A stretch of DNA of 48,644 nt from Escherichia coli (GCF_016903815.1 NZ_CP069971.1), one strand, 5' to 3'; positions 5,875 to 41,987 are shown, numbered from the stretch's first letter. Notes: generated from the sequence alone by a model not told the origin. Translations and numbers: made by a program.

Positions 5875-5900
5875 AAAAAAGGCCCCCGAAGGGGCCTAAT
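5875..5900 (-). terminator. intrinsic terminator (GGCCCC-CGAA-GGGGCC, T-run on minus strand)
   Basis: Perfect GC hairpin flanked by an A6 run on the plus strand, i.e. T6 on the minus strand; lies between convergent genes. Confidence 0.65.
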
Positions 5901-5902
5901 CG

Positions 5903-6022
5903 CTACTTGCTGCTAATGTTTATCGTCACATTCAGAGCGTTATCAGTAATCTTCCAACCCTCCCCATGTGGCGTAAACAAAGCTCCAGTAACAACGATAA
6001 AAATACACATACAGTATTTTTT
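5903..6022 (-). CDS. small hydrophobic peptide (about 40 aa), function unknown
   Basis: MKKYCMCIFIVVTGALFTPHGEGWKITDNALNVTINISSK with an AGGG RBS, ending at the terminator hairpin. Confidence 0.3.
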   Translation of the reverse strand, partial: KKYCMCIFIVVTGALFTPHGEGWKITDNALNVTINISSK

Positions 6023-6423
6023 CATTGTATGGCCCTTACAGGCCGTTTCACGGCATCCCCACCGACGAAAACAACGCGAGAGCAAGCACGGCTGCTTGTG
6101 CTTGCATGTACGGCAACGGAGAATCCTCCCCTAAAGTCGGTGCCCGGGTGCGAATCGGCGGGAAGGTCCACAGGTATTTTACGATTATTTTAAGATTAGT
6201 TATAGGAAAGAAATTAAACGAAAAAACTCGTTTATTTTCACAAAATCAGTAACCTACCCACAATCTGTGAGTTTGCAGGCACAACAAGAACCACAATTTT
6301 ATGAAGCATAATAGTGGACTATTATTACCTTTTGGGTAAAATTAACTTGCTGCTTGTGCTTGCGTGGTTGTTTATACAACAACGTAATGCTGAAAGGACC
6401 GCGAATCCGATCAGCACGAAAGA

Positions 6424-6483: not shown

Positions 6484-6593
6484 TGTCTCTGTTAAAATCC
6501 CGCCGTATTGACATAAATGCGCCATTGGTGGACACTTTCCTAGCCGTAGCAAAATCTACGGTCGGGATTGGAACCCCGTAGACACAATGGCGC

Positions 6594-6616
6594 ATACCGC
6601 GTTAGCGGTTTTTTTA
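6594..6616 (+). terminator. second terminator-like hairpin in the antirepressor leader
   Basis: ACCGC-GTTA-GCGGT followed by T7. Confidence 0.45.
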
Positions 6617-6781
6617 TGCGTAAAGCACTGCTACACCCAAATTATGGTGGGGCGTGCGGGGGAGTCGTAAGACTCGCCGGTTCGTCATTGTGTCCGGTAG
6701 TTCCAACCCTGCACGTCTCACCACCCAATGATTGGAACCTGACGGTGGTGAGTATCCTTAACCTTTAAGGGAATCATCACA

Positions 6782-8185: not shown

Positions 8186-8821
8186 TTAATATTTCGGTGT
8201 AATCAGTAGCGATACATGCCCTGATTTGTCACGAGAAACGTAATACTCGCCTCTCTTAGTCTTGAACTCAGCTTTCTGCATATCAGATTTAACAATCTGC
8301 TCTAACTGCGCAATCACGGTGTCTCTTTCACTTGACGCATCCAAGACTTCAACTGCTACGGCCATAGAAAGCAAGGAATCAGAGTTAGGCTTGGATACTC
8401 GCCATAATAACTCAGAAATCTTCCCATCCTTATCAACTCTAGCCCGACCGTTAACAGATGAGTTGATGGCAAATTCAACGGTGTTGTTACCTTGTTTAAC
8501 AGACTTAATTCTTATAGTGGAGGTGGCTTTTCCTGATGTAGCGATGCCTTCAAGGTCATCATTATATAACTTCTTAAACTTATCTACGGTCACACCATCA
8601 AAAGCAGCTCCGGTAGTAGCCGCAGTGTTGGAGTCTTCTGGGATCAAGGTCACAGCCGCAAGAGTATTAACAACTACAAAAGTTGCAATCCCGAGAAAGC
8701 CACTCACTAAAACAGCTTTGAACTTACCACCAGAAGACGAGGCACATTGTTTCCGATATGCGCCACGAACTACGAAGAAACACAAAATCAGGCTAATAAT
8801 AAACGCCACCAGCATCCCCAT
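8186..8821 (-). CDS. membrane protein with two N-terminal TM helices, function unknown
   Basis: 211 aa; MGMLVAFIISLILCFFVV and AVLVSGFLGIATFVVVNTLAAV hydrophobic segments, then a soluble domain of about 150 aa. Confidence 0.55.
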   Translation of the reverse strand: MGMLVAFIISLILCFFVVRGAYRKQCASSSGGKFKAVLVSGFLGIATFVVVNTLAAVTLIPEDSNTAATTGAAFDGVTVDKFKKLYNDDLEGIATSGKATSTIRIKSVKQGNNTVEFAINSSVNGRARVDKDGKISELLWRVSKPNSDSLLSMAVAVEVLDASSERDTVIAQLEQIVKSDMQKAEFKTKRGEYYVSRDKSGHVSLLITPKY

Positions 8822-9386
8822 AGAAATCTCCTTTTAGATATAAGGGTAAAGCAATATCGTATTAGATCTTCCTTAAGACACAACCCCCCCTCCCCCCATA
8901 CAGGGTGCCCTTTACCGGAGTTCCGGCCCCTTCTCAAAAGCATCAAAAAAAGCTCGAGATCGAGTACCGGAACTCATGCCACCAGATAGCTCCACATCGT
9001 TTCCAATGCTTCGCCGCCGTGTGCGCCCTGTGACCCACAATCATGCCATTGGTCGTCTGATATACCTTCTTCTGCTCATAGAGCACAGGCGAGTTGTCGC
9101 ACTCCTGCCTTTCTCAGACTCGACTTAGTTTAGATCGCTGTTCCTGGCTTGCGTCAGCACACTTTCCCCTTGTACGCATACCCGCGCGCCACTTCGCCCA
9201 AAAACACCGAACCCAACGAAGTAGCAAAGACAACGACGCGAGCGTGAGTCTGAAACGTGCACCAGTAAAAAAGGGGTTGCAGGCGCAAAAAGATTTGATT
9301 ATCTTTAGACGCAAGAAAGCCGCCCCAATCAAGAGGTGTCTTTTTAAATCCAGCCTACCAAGCAAGATTTAAATTTCAGACTGAAA

Positions 9387-9408
9387 ACCGCCCGGCAAGG
9401 CGGTTTTT
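9387..9408. terminator. bidirectional intrinsic terminator
   Basis: ACCGCC-CGGCAA-GGCGGT with T-runs on both strands. Confidence 0.65.
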
Positions 9409-9456
9409 GTCTTTCTGGCGCTTACATTACACCACCAGAAAACGATCCGTAAAGGA

Positions 9457-9729
9457 TCATTTGATCCCTTGTTCCAATTCTGACGACACTTTAACCTTTT
9501 CCCATACAAGGGTTTGCAGCCTTAACAGAATCGCGTCTTTATCAAGGCGTGAAAGATCCTTAACCATATCGTCAAATGACAGAACGCGAATGGCCATCTC
9601 AATGACCCTCGGCGGCTCCCCCTTCTCATATCGCTTATATGTAGCCAACGATATCCCAAATTCTTCGGCGGCTCGCTCCTGCGTCCAGTTCATCCCACGA
9701 CGCCATAATTTCAATTCATAACCCGTCAT
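9457..9729 (-). CDS. XRE-family HTH DNA-binding protein
   Basis: MTGYELKLWRRGMNWTQERAAEEFGISLATYKRYEKGE; GAGGAGG RBS before the ATG at 9729 (the track ORF starts further upstream). Confidence 0.6.
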   Translation of the reverse strand: MTGYELKLWRRGMNWTQERAAEEFGISLATYKRYEKGEPPRVIEMAIRVLSFDDMVKDLSRLDKDAILLRLQTLVWEKVKVSSELEQGIK

Positions 9730-9740
9730 AGCATCCTCCT

Positions 9741-9790
9741 CGCACAATACTAACACTCGCAAAGTGTCAAAATGACACTTTGCGTATTGT
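9741..9790. promoter_or_regulatory. long nested palindrome (GCAAAGTGTCA-TTT-TGACACTTTGC flanked by CACAATAC/GTATTGTG)
   Basis: Perfect 11-bp arms with imperfect outer arms, between the 126-aa gene stop and the HTH gene RBS. Confidence 0.6.
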
Positions 9791-9792
9791 GT

Positions 9793-10173
9793 TTACTTAA
9801 CGAGGAATAAAAATGGTTTATTGTTCGGCGGTGTAATCGGGGCTGGCTCGCTTTTGCTCATGCGATCAGTGTACCAAGCCAACTCCTTGTCAAAGTAAGC
9901 CTGATTAAAATAGGCCATGAATGTAGTTTCAAATCCATAACGACCGCTAATACGCAGCATCTGATTGCCGTTCTCTGTTTCCAGATATACCTGGGCACGT
10001 TCCTGATTCTCCTTCAGCCAGGTTAAAGCCTCATCGCATGAGGACACACGATACTCATCATCGTAGCCGTCATCGATGCGGCTTGAGGAAGAACGGCAAA
10101 TCACGCCAACAGAACCAGCCAGGATAGTTTGAATTTTAAGGAAAGCGTTTTTGCGGATTTTAATCATGCTCAT
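9793..10173 (-). CDS. hypothetical protein (126 aa), first gene downstream of cassette copy 2
   Basis: ORF with a GGAGA RBS supplied by the conserved leader; no family recognised. Confidence 0.5.
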   Translation of the reverse strand: MSMIKIRKNAFLKIQTILAGSVGVICRSSSSRIDDGYDDEYRVSSCDEALTWLKENQERAQVYLETENGNQMLRISGRYGFETTFMAYFNQAYFDKELAWYTDRMSKSEPAPITPPNNKPFLFLVK

Positions 10174-10285
10174 CGGGTTATCTCCGGTTTAACCAGGGCG
10201 GGTATCGCTCGGTTTCGGGTATAACCTTAGGAAATTTTTTCCCACCTGTAAAGCACTTTTTATATAAATCTATAATTATATAAAT
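10174..10285 (-). promoter_or_regulatory. conserved promoter-leader cassette, copy 2
   Basis: Identical to copy 1 over about 103 bp. Confidence 0.6.
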
Positions 10286-11460: not shown

Positions 11461-11649
11461 ATTTCAAGAAAAACGGGGCTATTTAACATAATGGACGTTA
11501 TCGGCACCACCGGATCACCGTTCATTGTCGGATCTAAAAAATCCGCTCAAAAGATCATGTTTTCCTGGGCGTTTTCCACCGTTTTTTATGTTGCTTATTT
11601 GTTAATGAAATCTCGTTTTCAGTTTCGCCTCATTTTCGACGCGAAAGCC

Positions 11650-11940: not shown

Positions 11941-12236
11941 ACATCTGTTTTGTTATCAATGAAGATTAACCCTAACCCAGCGAAGTAACACAGCAGCGCC
12001 CAGGCTGCATACGGAATGCTGGATCTGGATGTGGACTCCTTTAACATCTGCCAGTTGCGAACATTGCGACTATCTTTTAAGCCAAGTTTTTTGGCCAACT
12101 GCGATCCGCTCATTCCGGTCAGGCCAATGACTGCCCGAACTTCTCCACATGTAGGAGATTCCCATTCATCCGCTTTTTTTAAACAAGCCGGATTCAACAT
12201 TTTTAAAACAGTATCTTTATCCATAACCATCTCCAT
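11937..12236 (-). CDS. hypothetical protein with HTH-like segment
   Basis: 99 aa; ...IGLTGMSGSQLAKKLGLKDSRNVRNW... Confidence 0.4.
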   Translation of the reverse strand: MEMVMDKDTVLKMLNPACLKKADEWESPTCGEVRAVIGLTGMSGSQLAKKLGLKDSRNVRNWQMLKESTSRSSIPYAAWALLCYFAGLGLIFIDNKTDV

Positions 12237-12599
12237 TTATTATATCTACGATGGTAGGAAATCTTTTCCTATGTGGCAATAGAAATTTACTACATTGCGT
12301 ATAAGACAAGTTTTCTATGTCTAATAGGAAATGATGTTTCTTACGTTTTATCGCGTTCTGATGGCTACTGTGTGCGTATTTATCGATGTTTATTGATAAG
12401 GCTCGCCCCTTCCTCCTGCAAAGCCCGGCCGTAGGCCTTATTTCGGCCTTATATAAATTGATTTTGTATAGTTCGAAACGCGCCGTTTCGAAAAGGATGA
12501 TCAGGCTGCTCCATGCCTCCGGCAAGTGCCGGAGGAGGTATATTTGAGCGTAGCGACTCGAACCGGCGCGAGCTTTAGCTCGCTGCAAGGGCGAACATA

Positions 12600-12745
12600 T
12601 TCACAGGCAAAGCCTGCGTAAGTTAAATAAAGAAAGTTTTAATAAAAGAAAGTGATTTTGCATTTATTTGTTTAGTGCATCTATTATAAAAAACCATTTG
12701 CATATACATATCAAAACTGTGGATAACTTTATTATCCGATGCCTG
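12600..12745. other. oriR-like region: AT-rich tract plus inverted DnaA-box pair (TGTGGATAA 12718-12726; TTATCCGAT 12732-12740)
   Basis: Downstream of the repA stop, preceded by a GC-rich multi-hairpin segment (12380-12600). Confidence 0.5.
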
Positions 12746-12867
12746 TAAAGGCGATATTTTTGCTGTGTTCAGGTTTAGAGAAAATTAATTTAGATTGTTT
12801 TTTGAACAGATATTTTATTGCGACGTAGATAATCCTCCGGTAAAACCGGATTCATCATTCAGGTGGG

Positions 12868-13848
12868 TTAATGTTGGAGTGATTTCCAGGTCTTTCTTAG
12901 CCTGTTATAACGCTGCTCAACGAGGGAGCGTAAATATGCAAGGTCAGCACCAGGATACATGCCATCAGCAAATTCCTGGCTAACCTCTCTAGTGATTTGA
13001 TGACGAAGTTCGGCCTCTCCCTTTTCCTGAACAAGACGCGCAGCTCTCTCCGCTGCTTTCTGTTTTGCCTTTATCTCTCTGGCCGTCTTCCTCTGACGCC
13101 ATACATTCTCCATCTGCTCCTGAATAACAATACGCTTATAATCAGCCTCCGTTATCGCTTTTTTAAGCCGTTCGCTATTCTTCGCATTGAAGTAATTAAG
13201 TTTCTGGCTAACCGCACGTCTCCATGCTTGTTCAGTAATACCAACTGTTTCCAGCAGTTGATCACGAATCTCGATTTTCGCTGGCCAATACTGTTTATTC
13301 ACCCGATCCCAGCGACGTTCATAATCAATAAAACCTAACTCTTTCAGTTGCGACAACGCCCTTGTACAGCGCGTTATAGACTTGTTCCCAGCTTCGGATA
13401 CGGTAGACAGGCCGCAAAAATCAGCCAACGCCTCAGCACTGGCCAGAACCCGCTTAGAAATGATGTTTACATGGTGCAAAATCGCAGCAATCACAGCATT
13501 AATCGCCCGACGACGATGCTCGTTTATCCGGCGTTTCCGCTCTGACGGTTGATTAACGTAGAACGCAACCTCACACGTAAGATCACGACCATTAATGCGC
13601 TGTAAAGCATCAGATAACACCAGCGGCAGCTTGTGCGTATGGTGCTTTGGAGGCTGGAACTCCGGCGACAAATTACAAACGTAAGCTGAACGTAGAGACG
13701 GCATTGGTCTATCCATATGTTCGCTCTTGCGTCCACGGAAAACCAACGTATAATGGGAGTTGTCGAGGCGCCCATGGATTGTTGTTGTTGGTTTTCCGTG
13801 GATGTCGCAAGAAGCCCGCAGATTTATCTGCGGGCTTTTTGTTTCCAT
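12868..13848 (-). CDS. repA: replication initiator RepA (IncFII RepA-like); may include a leader ORF, with an alternative internal start near 13716
   Basis: ...CGLSTVSEAGNKSITRCTRALSQLKELGFIDYERR... resembles the conserved core of IncFII RepA1 (recalled, not searched). Confidence 0.65.
   Translation of the reverse strand: METKSPQINLRASCDIHGKPTTTIHGRLDNSHYTLVFRGRKSEHMDRPMPSLRSAYVCNLSPEFQPPKHHTHKLPLVLSDALQRINGRDLTCEVAFYVNQPSERKRRINEHRRRAINAVIAAILHHVNIISKRVLASAEALADFCGLSTVSEAGNKSITRCTRALSQLKELGFIDYERRWDRVNKQYWPAKIEIRDQLLETVGITEQAWRRAVSQKLNYFNAKNSERLKKAITEADYKRIVIQEQMENVWRQRKTAREIKAKQKAAERAARLVQEKGEAELRHQITREVSQEFADGMYPGADLAYLRSLVEQRYNRLRKTWKSLQH
13762..13840 (+). ncRNA. CopA-like antisense RNA opposite the repA 5' region (putative)
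   Basis: Plus-strand promoter TTGCGT (13727-13732), 16-nt spacer, TATAAT (13749-13754); terminator AGCCCGCAGAT..ATCTGCGGGCT + T-run at 13813-13840, antisense to the first repA codons and RBS. Confidence 0.5.
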
Positions 13849-41609: not shown

Positions 41610-41875
41610 TCATCATCTCCTGCCGCACATACAACCTCACAAAAAACATCAGCGGAATGTTTCTTTTTGAATGAATGGCGCTCAAAACCGCACTCAATAT
41701 CAGGCGCAAAAACATCCACCACATACGGTCTTTCAGAATGTTTGTTTTCCCAACGATAAACCGTAGTGACGTTGAAATGTTTTAACGCTTCACGGTACTC
41801 AACGCTGCCCGTCAGGTTTTTTGAGGTCAGGTATTGCAGGAGGTTTTTTACTACTTCACGGTCTTGTACTTTCAT
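41606..41875 (-). CDS. hypothetical protein, first gene downstream of cassette copy 3
   Basis: 89 aa; RBS supplied by the conserved leader. Confidence 0.45.
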   Translation of the reverse strand: MKVQDREVVKNLLQYLTSKNLTGSVEYREALKHFNVTTVYRWENKHSERPYVVDVFAPDIECGFERHSFKKKHSADVFCEVVCAAGDDE

Positions 41876-41987
41876 CGGGTTATCTCCGGTTTAACCAGGG
41901 CGGGTATCGCTCGGTTTCGGGTATAATCATAGGAAATTTTTTCCCACCTGCAAAGCACTTTTTATATAAATATATAATTATATAATT
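41876..41987 (-). promoter_or_regulatory. conserved promoter-leader cassette, copy 3 (four substitutions relative to copies 1 and 2)
   Basis: tatctccggtttaaccagggcgggtatcgctcggtttcgggtataatcataggaaattttttcccacctgcaaagcactttttatataaatatataattatataa. Confidence 0.6.

Follow-up and report, generated by a model that had tools for sequence, protein, structure and literature searches.

Why should a gap without genes change more slowly than the genes on either side of it? We examined this question for positions 8822-9456 of a 48,644-nt stretch of Escherichia coli DNA (NZ_CP069971.1; hereafter the window), which lie between a 211-aa gene (8186-8821, minus strand) and the gene for a small helix-turn-helix (HTH) regulator (9457-9729, minus strand). 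The 48.6-kb window is a complete or near-complete phage-plasmid of a lineage that clinical and reference Enterobacteriaceae commonly carry; the interval, the best-conserved 0.6 kb of that lineage, is without any annotation. Our results indicate that it is probably the locus of a structured non-coding RNA that is real, unannotated, new and restricted to this lineage, for which we tentatively suggest a role in priming DNA synthesis.

The interval is conserved and non-coding

A preliminary description of this DNA had placed the gap at 8822-9386; the gap itself is there, but is slightly longer. Its view that the gap holds no credible open reading frame (ORF) agrees with the annotation, by PGAP or by the depositors, of five relatives, which puts no gene in the interval. 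The two ORFs that it called low-complexity, 9094-9372 (plus strand, 92 aa) and 9114-9365 (minus strand, 83 aa), do exist, both with a TTG start, but they are ordinary ORFs. Likewise, the poly-C tract that it reported is genuine, although the string cacaaccccccctcccccc begins at 8879 and not at 8881; because the RNA is most probably read from the minus strand, this tract is G6AG7 at the 3' end of the RNA and not at the start of the region. The interval has a G+C content of 0.49, as compared with 0.443 for the whole window.

Plasmids of about 48 kb, 98-99% identical to the window, occurred in 71 of 5,426 complete E. coli genomes, with a plasmid location for 71 of the 72 matching places, and the quality-control strain E. 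coli ATCC 25922 (plasmid NZ_CP009073) is among the carriers of the lineage. Other relatives were 61 plasmids from PLSDB and three Yersinia pestis phages (vB_YpM_39, 41 and 44), and the lineage is also present in Salmonella, Klebsiella and Citrobacter. Across the relatives from these three genera, Yokenella and metagenomes, positions 8871-9456 showed 86-91% nucleotide identity. When the Salmonella and Yokenella relatives were compared with the window, the non-coding stretch was 86-88% and the hairpin region 92-95% identical, as opposed to 69-71% for the HTH gene, 70-82% for the rest of their genomes, and a left flank that was unrelated. In further lineages recovered by protein-guided retrieval (K. 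aerogenes, Citrobacter, additional Salmonella and metagenomes), the non-coding region was 90-91% identical and the HTH protein 69-77% identical in amino acids.

Conservation spans from the stop codon of the HTH gene to position ~8871, 13 nt past the C tract. In many relatives homology starts abruptly at this point and extends across the hairpin into the HTH gene, while past ~8871 they carry different genes or none. The most variable segment of the whole region is 9321-9370. More distant homologues were sought by three pattern scans of IMG/VR, by blastn searches of plasmid and phage sequences, with nhmmer in other HTH contexts and in one scan of metagenomes; these found only the same lineage, with a maximum divergence of about 14-21%.

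The preliminary description had also considered decayed genes, to be sought as frameshifted homologues of known proteins. Decay, however, would make the interval less conserved than its neighbours, not more, and no frame had a coding signature. Alignments of the interval contain 1-nt indels and, in one metagenome relative (L267), a 50-nt deletion, which break the frames other than 8976-9128; the ORF at these positions had a ratio of non-synonymous to synonymous polymorphism (pN/pS) of 0.65, equal to that of the off-frames. None of nine ORF translations of the interval matched a PHROG family, and with NCBIfam we obtained only chance-level matches (E ~0.05), far under the curated cutoffs. On the minus strand there was no conserved hydrophobic ORF, its conserved ORF remnants being either short and basic or frame-shifted between lineages. 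On the basis of frame conservation, pN/pS and profile searches we rejected pseudogene and small-protein readings, and a type I toxin-antitoxin system like hok/sok was rejected for want of a conserved small hydrophobic ORF on the long RNA. The interval is under strong purifying selection and is non-coding.

The minus strand probably specifies a functional folded RNA

The possibility of a non-coding RNA, which had been raised together with decay, gained support from purifying selection on non-coding sequence and from strand-specific covariation. For 17 sequences, RNAalifold gave a covariation term of 5.5 on the minus strand versus 1.4 on the plus strand, and 27 versus 9 pairs survived one-sided change. 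We counted covariation on two alignments, A2 and A3. In alignment A3, 99.3% of cells were paired by the minus-strand structure, against ~44% in slid controls, and 42 cells showed two-sided change, against 16.9 ± 4.0 in shuffles (0/500) and 0-7 in slid controls. Read on the plus strand, many of the conserved pairs, which are G-U on the minus strand, would become C-A mismatches. Conserved pairs were kept by compensatory or G-U-compatible change, and more so on one strand, and we consider it probable that the minus strand encodes a functional structured non-coding RNA. A folded RNA of this size, changing more slowly than the proteins nearby, is likely to be central to the replication of the element or to its switch between plasmid and phage life.

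The predicted hairpins are listed in Table 1. The G-rich loop of H15 lies ~270 nt upstream of the G tract, and an exact 20-mer probe from this hairpin retrieved 15 metagenome copies. The 50-nt deletion of L267 is centred on H13 and removes the hairpin cleanly, as expected of a modular RNA. The predicted long-range pairing of AGACACCUCUU with GGGGGGUUGUGUCU, for which the alignment contained one consistent U-to-C change and two broken cells, is a weak candidate for closing the folded domain; its AGACACCUCUU segment falls inside the overlap with the candidate antisense RNA described below.

No Rfam 15 family matched 8822-9456 at the gathering threshold, and in E-value mode the sub-threshold hits fell on the terminator hairpin only; a tRNA/tmRNA scan of the region found none. 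A receptor for the GAAA tetraloop (UAUGG...CCUAAG) was discarded, its second half not being conserved. Our literature search found no paper on a structured RNA of 8822-9456. HQ103, a different 32-kb phage, and pSLy3, a member of the SSU5 supergroup, were set aside as literature on this lineage.

A G tract lies at the edge of conservation

The tract at 8884-8897 contains the only C runs of at least 6 nt in the window, with a chance expectation of ~0.008 for 14-mers with at least 13 of 14 C or G. On the RNA strand, G6AG7 was unchanged in nearly all relatives, the exceptions being G6AG5TG in L267 and a second run of G8 in L006, and AUG precedes it (GUG in a single relative). In the window, the G tract is followed by the variable spacer and the 211-aa cargo gene. 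In six relatives (L004, L246, L248, L249, L254 and L267), an intrinsic terminator, AAAGGGGCCGAAGCCCCUUUUCUU, which is better oriented for the minus strand, lies within ~12 nt past the G tract.

The slot past the G tract, equivalent to 8186-8821, holds content that varies by lineage (L002, L003, L004, L245 and L246): a 211-214-aa membrane-anchored protein (phrog_23465), a 218-aa protein, a 61-aa ORF, or only a terminator, which abuts the convergent Rha/ant gene. The behaviour of the slot is that of a hot spot for insertion or exchange.

Predicted transcription of the region

The HTH gene and the RNA region were linked in all relatives. The HTH promoter is overlapped by a perfect palindrome that includes its -35 hexamer and that probably serves as an autoregulatory operator. 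Farther upstream, the operon formed by a 126-aa gene, the HTH gene and the RNA region is headed by one of three 113-bp repeats (735-846, 10170-10283 and 41872-41985) that are 96-97% identical. Each repeat comprises an AT-rich tract, a TTTACA box, a GGAAA-TTTTTTCC dyad, a promoter/leader, a Shine-Dalgarno sequence and the ATG of a minus-strand operon; the other two head a DUF3560-to-lysis operon and a ParB-like/terminase/head operon. The arrangement resembles a switch by which a single regulator turns on all three operons at once, and we infer co-expression of the RNA region and the two genes before it with lytic functions.

The hairpin at 9382-9409 had been taken for a strong bidirectional terminator. 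The hairpin is real, but the terminator scan reported it for the plus strand alone; downstream of the stem on the minus strand come UUUUCAG (4 U) in the window and UUUCAG (3 U) in most relatives. The candidate antisense RNA that would end there is preceded by hexamers, TTGCAG-17-TATCTT, that were invariant among relatives while their spacer varied, and the most variable segment, 9321-9370, lies under it.

Table 1. Position and strand of the features discussed, in window coordinates except for the IMG/VR loci
Feature	Position	Strand	Evidence or remark
ryfA	5875-6171	-	Rfam, 142 bits
isrK	6543-6615	+	Rfam, 68 bits
C4 antisense RNA	6640-6728	+	Rfam, 78 bits
Variable spacer, conserved RNA region to lineage-specific cargo gene	8822-8870		19-56% identity to Salmonella/Yokenella relatives, different genes beyond
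Conserved structured non-coding RNA region, putative untranslated continuation of HTH transcript	8866-9456	-	Identity, covariation, no annotated gene in relatives
G6AG7 (C7TC6 on plus strand), preceded by AUG/GUG	8884-8897	-	3' edge of conservation, which ends a few bases past, after UUGUGUCU (~8871)
H22, 21-bp hairpin just upstream of G tract	8918-8975	-	17 pairs invariant, 4 one-sided via G-U; 0 broken cells in 17 sequences
ORF of 50 aa (MPPDSS...LLPFSDST)	8976-9128	+	Sole ORF open in 19/19 sequences; ATG, frame and stop kept
H21, GAAA tetraloop hairpin	8994-9009	-	3/6 pairs two-sided: AU/GC, UA/CG, CG/UA across lineages
H15, invariant hairpin with G-rich loop AAGGGGAAAG	9146-9182	-	12 pairs without variation in 17 sequences
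H13, covarying hairpin	9188-9225	-	3 pairs two-sided, 3 one-sided
H6/7, nearly invariant hairpin	9273-9326	-	Alignment of 17 sequences
Candidate antisense -35 TTGCAG / -10 TATCTT	9277-9282 / 9300-9305	+	Read from sequence; spacing 17
Candidate ~100-nt antisense RNA with three stem-loops	9312-9414	+	Ends at strong plus-strand terminator; 103-nt fold z = -3.73; promoter predicted
AGACACCUCUU, predicted long-range partner of GGGGGGUUGUGUCU (8876-8889)	9331-9341	-	Helices 4 and 5
GC-rich hairpin (stem-loop 9382-9409)	9378-9412		Plus-strand intrinsic terminator; minus strand probably read through
Small XRE-type HTH regulator gene	9457-9729	-	phrog_6962; weak RstR-like match
HTH promoter TTGACA-15-TATTGT	9744-9770	-	Only good sigma-70-like promoter nearby
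Perfect 12+12 palindrome CGCAAAGTGTCA-AAA-TGACACTTTGCG over HTH promoter, -35 TTGACA	9758-9784	-	Sequence; also scores as terminator-like hairpin
113-bp repeat copy heading 126-aa gene, HTH gene, RNA region operon	10170-10283	-	Repeat comparison
XerC/XerD (dif/cer-like) site GGTGCCGATAA-CGTCCA-TTATGTTAAAT	11481-11508	-	20/22 positions, XerD arm 11/11
Gene-free stretch of ~0.63 kb just 3' of IncFII-type repA	~12237-12871		Perfect DnaA box at 12718-12726 (-)
C7TC6 family loci, IMG/VR	L016-L127, e.g. L036 4807-4887 (-), L035, L098, L024		Invariant core CCCCCCCTCCCCCCATA

A possible primer role

We propose that a conserved non-coding RNA of ~0.55-0.6 kb, highly folded, is probably encoded by the minus strand of the interval and would continue, untranslated, the transcript of the autoregulated HTH gene (9729 to 9457) and probably also that of the operon which the promoter/leader repeat at 10170-10283 heads. 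RNA polymerase would pass the hairpin at 9412-9378, a good terminator only for the other strand, and the RNA would fold into a multi-helix domain and end with the near-invariant G6AG7 (8897-8884). The plus-strand terminator would end the candidate antisense RNA of ~100 nt (9312-9414), which would lie over the 5' part of the long RNA. The long RNA might be a pre-primer, its G tract forming a persistent RNA-DNA hybrid (an R-loop, possibly a hybrid G-quadruplex) on C7TC6; host enzymes would start DNA synthesis at this hybrid, under the control of the antisense RNA and the HTH repressor. The logic would be that of ColE1 RNA II/RNA I and of mitochondrial CSBII.

A recombination or replication site had also been among the options of the preliminary description, and an RNA-primed (R-loop) origin would be compatible with the anatomy of the interval. 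Several features fit priming: the length of the RNA, together with a G tract on a dC template where conservation stops and an invariant G-rich loop ~270 nt upstream; the three-stem-loop antisense candidate at the 5' end, with a variable segment beneath it; control by a repressor and a promoter/leader common to the lysis and packaging operons; a position beside an immI immunity module, where P1 keeps its lytic replicon; and an interval in which no iterons or DnaA-type origin features compete. In our analysis this role ranks first among specific functions, ahead of a riboregulator, yet we hold it to be a tentative possibility only. When the structured RNA and its primer role are judged together, our blended confidence comes near to an even balance without reaching it. 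The more ambitious form, a second and probably lytic origin that is RNA-primed by host enzymes without an initiator protein, its transcript folding like a ColE1 RNA II on a template identical to the human mitochondrial conserved sequence block II (CSBII), seems to us unlikely. If the pre-primer proposal is true, R-loop priming in the style of ColE1 and mitochondria would extend to tailed phages, and the G tract and the antisense RNA would offer a simple handle for curing or controlling such elements.

A number of points weigh against this proposal. The count of pairs with two-sided change was reached in 33 of 500 shuffles, and the relatives are only ~9-14% divergent and represent few independent lineages; moreover, the alignment tested is also the one from which the structure was predicted, which leaves the covariation statistics suggestive rather than decisive. 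The promoter scan found no convincing sigma-70-like promoter inside the region, and the antisense promoter fits only 7 of 12 consensus positions; we infer the strand and ends of the minus-strand transcript, as well as the antisense RNA, from the sequence. With regard to priming, there is no dedicated promoter (we found no sigma-70 promoter ~0.5 kb upstream of the putative origin, the nearest being the HTH promoter at 9770-9744) and no sequence or Rfam similarity to RNA II or RNA I of ColE1. The model for RNA I (RF00106) scored 18.1 and 20.3 bits, driven by the terminator hairpin, against a gathering score of 47 bits, and blastn (word 11) against 72,556 plasmids returned only 61 members of this phage-plasmid lineage and no ColE1-family replicon. 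The element already has an IncFII-type RepA and a probable replication origin (oriV) at ~12.2-12.9 kb, and ColE1 has no counterpart of the terminator that closely follows the G tract in some relatives. The G tract could also simply close a helix or stabilise the 3' end.

Alternative explanations

The same minus-strand RNA could act as a riboregulator or protein-binding RNA instead of a primer, that is, as a long regulator or sponge derived from a 3' untranslated region that would work through its invariant loops and G tract in the circuitry of lysis-lysogeny and maintenance. We regard this as nearly as likely as the primer role. The region lies in a regulatory area beside C4, isrK-like and ryfA-like RNAs and accompanies an autoregulated HTH gene, pairing alone would not require the invariance of hairpins H15 and H6/7, and the terminator past the G tract in several relatives would give the RNA a defined 3' end. 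However, this end differs by lineage, with a terminator in some and read-through into cargo in others, and no target or partner was identified in the window: exact complementarity to the rest of it was at chance level, and an RNAduplex target scan gave unrealistic long loops and was uninformative. At 0.55 kb the RNA is also far above known phage riboregulators in size and, if it is one, would be among the largest. Both this reading and the pre-primer are directly testable in an ordinary laboratory strain.

Less probable than either is that the functional unit lies on the plus strand, as a C-rich zone for Rho loading and termination of read-through from the ant operon or as the ~100-nt small RNA alone, the apparent minus-strand fold being incidental. 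The sole strong terminator does point along the plus strand, which is C-rich and G-poor in the interval (29% C, 20% G) and begins with C7UC6, the ant operon converges on the region, and the 9312-9414 segment folds well (Table 1). However, the C-over-G skew is common to the whole window and not confined to 8822-9456, a rut-type zone needs neither 86-91% identity nor covarying hairpins, and the covariation, the one-sided changes and the G-U pairs described above all favour the minus strand. We consider the plus-strand reading improbable.

It is very unlikely that the conservation stems from protein binding to a cis-acting DNA site, such as a transfer origin (oriT), a packaging or recombination site or a hot spot for insertion at the C tract. 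Such a site would agree with the sharp boundary of conservation at the C tract and the variable cargo beyond it, with several invariant blocks, and with the inverted repeat of H22 followed by CCGGTAAAGGGCACCCT, which resembles the nick region CCGGTAAGTGCGCCCT of the RSF1010 oriT. Nevertheless, 166 of 1000 shuffles scored as high as this match, which puts the resemblance to an RSF1010-like (MOBQ) oriT at chance level, and no relaxase gene is present. The interval 8822-9456 held no iterons, no tandem or direct repeats, no DnaA boxes with up to one mismatch, and no candidate XerCD site (XerC arm, 6-8 bp spacer, XerD arm TTATGTTAAAT), such a site being located at 11481-11508 instead; the terminase genes are ~30 kb away. 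Strand-specific G-U patterns and the clean loss of a hairpin are, in addition, signatures of an RNA.

Least credible is that the interval encodes small proteins, a hok/sok-type toxin-antitoxin system or a decayed gene: the frame of 8976-9128, although kept in all sequences, behaves like its off-frames, and the long folded RNA, the short antisense RNA and the possible 5'-3' pairing that recall hok/sok come without the toxin ORF.

Comparison with known systems

In the origins of ColE1 and pMB1, as here, a non-coding and highly folded RNA of ~0.5 kb has a G run on a dC template at the end of the unit (here G6AG7/C7TC6 at 8884-8897), a G-rich loop ~265-275 nt upstream of it, and sequence past the end point that is free to vary; a ~100-nt antisense RNA with three stem-loops and a strong terminator, in our case a candidate, lies over the 5' part. 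The ColE1 features that we compared are reportedly those of Masukata and Tomizawa (1990). Unlike in those plasmids, the RNA would share its transcript with a preceding ORF; it has no sequence similarity, Rfam RNAI match or dedicated promoter found here, and belongs to a 48-kb phage-plasmid with RepA and a probable oriV.

The tract is letter-identical to the common form of human mitochondrial CSBII, C7TC6 or G6AG7. At CSBII, transcription is stopped, and a replication primer made, by a hybrid G-quadruplex/R-loop between G-rich RNA and the non-template DNA. The two are certainly not homologous, the enzyme in our case being a bacterial multi-subunit RNA polymerase, and their identity may be a coincidence of two low-complexity tracts.

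With the ROOL and GOLLD RNAs, the RNA shares a size class of ~0.5-0.8 kb, a multi-helix fold, a residence in mobile elements and the lack of an adjacent dedicated protein; unlike them, it is confined to one enterobacterial phage-plasmid lineage and is conserved mainly in sequence, with modest covariation, and it does not match their Rfam models. The hok/sok system also has a long folded RNA with a possible 5'-3' fold-back, a short convergent antisense RNA at its 5' part and a neighbourhood of plasmid-maintenance genes, but our RNA strand has no conserved small hydrophobic ORF and no Rfam match. Finally, in P1 the immI region and the lytic replicon follow one another (c4-icd-ant, then kilA-repL with oriL), so that a transcription-activated lytic replicon sits immediately beyond ant. 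Our element has a P1-like c4/isrK-ant module and, immediately beyond ant, the conserved non-coding unit. It differs in having no repL or kilA homologue and in its opposite orientation, and the likeness is positional only.

Occurrence of the tract elsewhere

The 17-mer CCCCCCCTCCCCCCATA was present in 112 stretches from IMG/VR, of which ~75 form one family from uncultured AT-rich phages. In this family it is invariant and occurs in intergenic elements of 100-150 nt, located between gene modules in either orientation, that carry two direct-repeat-like halves, ..ATCTCTGAGGGAAAGT-C7TC6.. and ..ATCTCTAGTGCAAAGTCCCCAC..; in one sub-group (A1), 23 of 25 flank-pattern hits carried the 17-mer. The family has no consensus RNA fold and no cultured representative, and seven or eight of its loci gave no Rfam match at gathering or E-value thresholds. 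We rejected homology between these elements and the G-tract domain of the window, given that a covariance model of the 3' domain of the window, which scored 196 bits on the window, gave nothing significant (E values of at least 3.8) in 64 loci. Roughly ten chance hits to the 17-mer are expected in a database of the size of IMG/VR, and a single hit in a large family is multiplied; we therefore treat the link as coincidence or convergence, not homology. If an RNA-primed origin is nevertheless assumed, the 17-mer in the ~75 contigs would be a recurrent signal for primer formation or termination, which we likewise think unlikely. A scan of 100,044 species genomes in GTDB with the 16-mer C6TC6ATA gave 112 hits at chance level, in random and unrelated contexts. 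The C7TC6 string is also found in papers on hypervariable region 2 (HV2) of mitochondrial DNA.

Other features of the element

Annotated relatives encode P2-like tail genes, a terminase, a portal and a capsid, together with an IncFII-type RepA, ParA, toxin-antitoxin pairs and an anti-repressor. The ryfA, isrK and C4 matches stand directly upstream of a small ORF and of the 393-aa ORF6N/Rha anti-repressor gene (ant), and with the anti-repressor they constitute an immI immunity module of the P1/P7 type in a phage with P2-like tail genes. The Rfam scan of the whole window also detected a tRNA, outside 8822-9456.

The gene-free stretch 3' of repA, near which one-mismatch DnaA boxes occur at 12141 and 12217, is the probable oriV of the plasmid. 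The XerC/XerD site, placed in the gap between a toxin-antitoxin pair and the next gene, is probably its multimer-resolution site.

Profile matches of the neighbouring proteins provided no functional lead. Relatives of the HTH protein at 42-53% identity occur in other contexts, none with this RNA region: as C-protein-like regulators beside restriction genes, in Lastavirus phages and on a Klebsiella plasmid. Proteins 42% identical to it are encoded directly upstream of restriction endonuclease genes on thousands of conjugative plasmids, and the PLSDB matches H110-H123, on IncL/M-like and other plasmids, are HTH relatives resembling controller (C) proteins.

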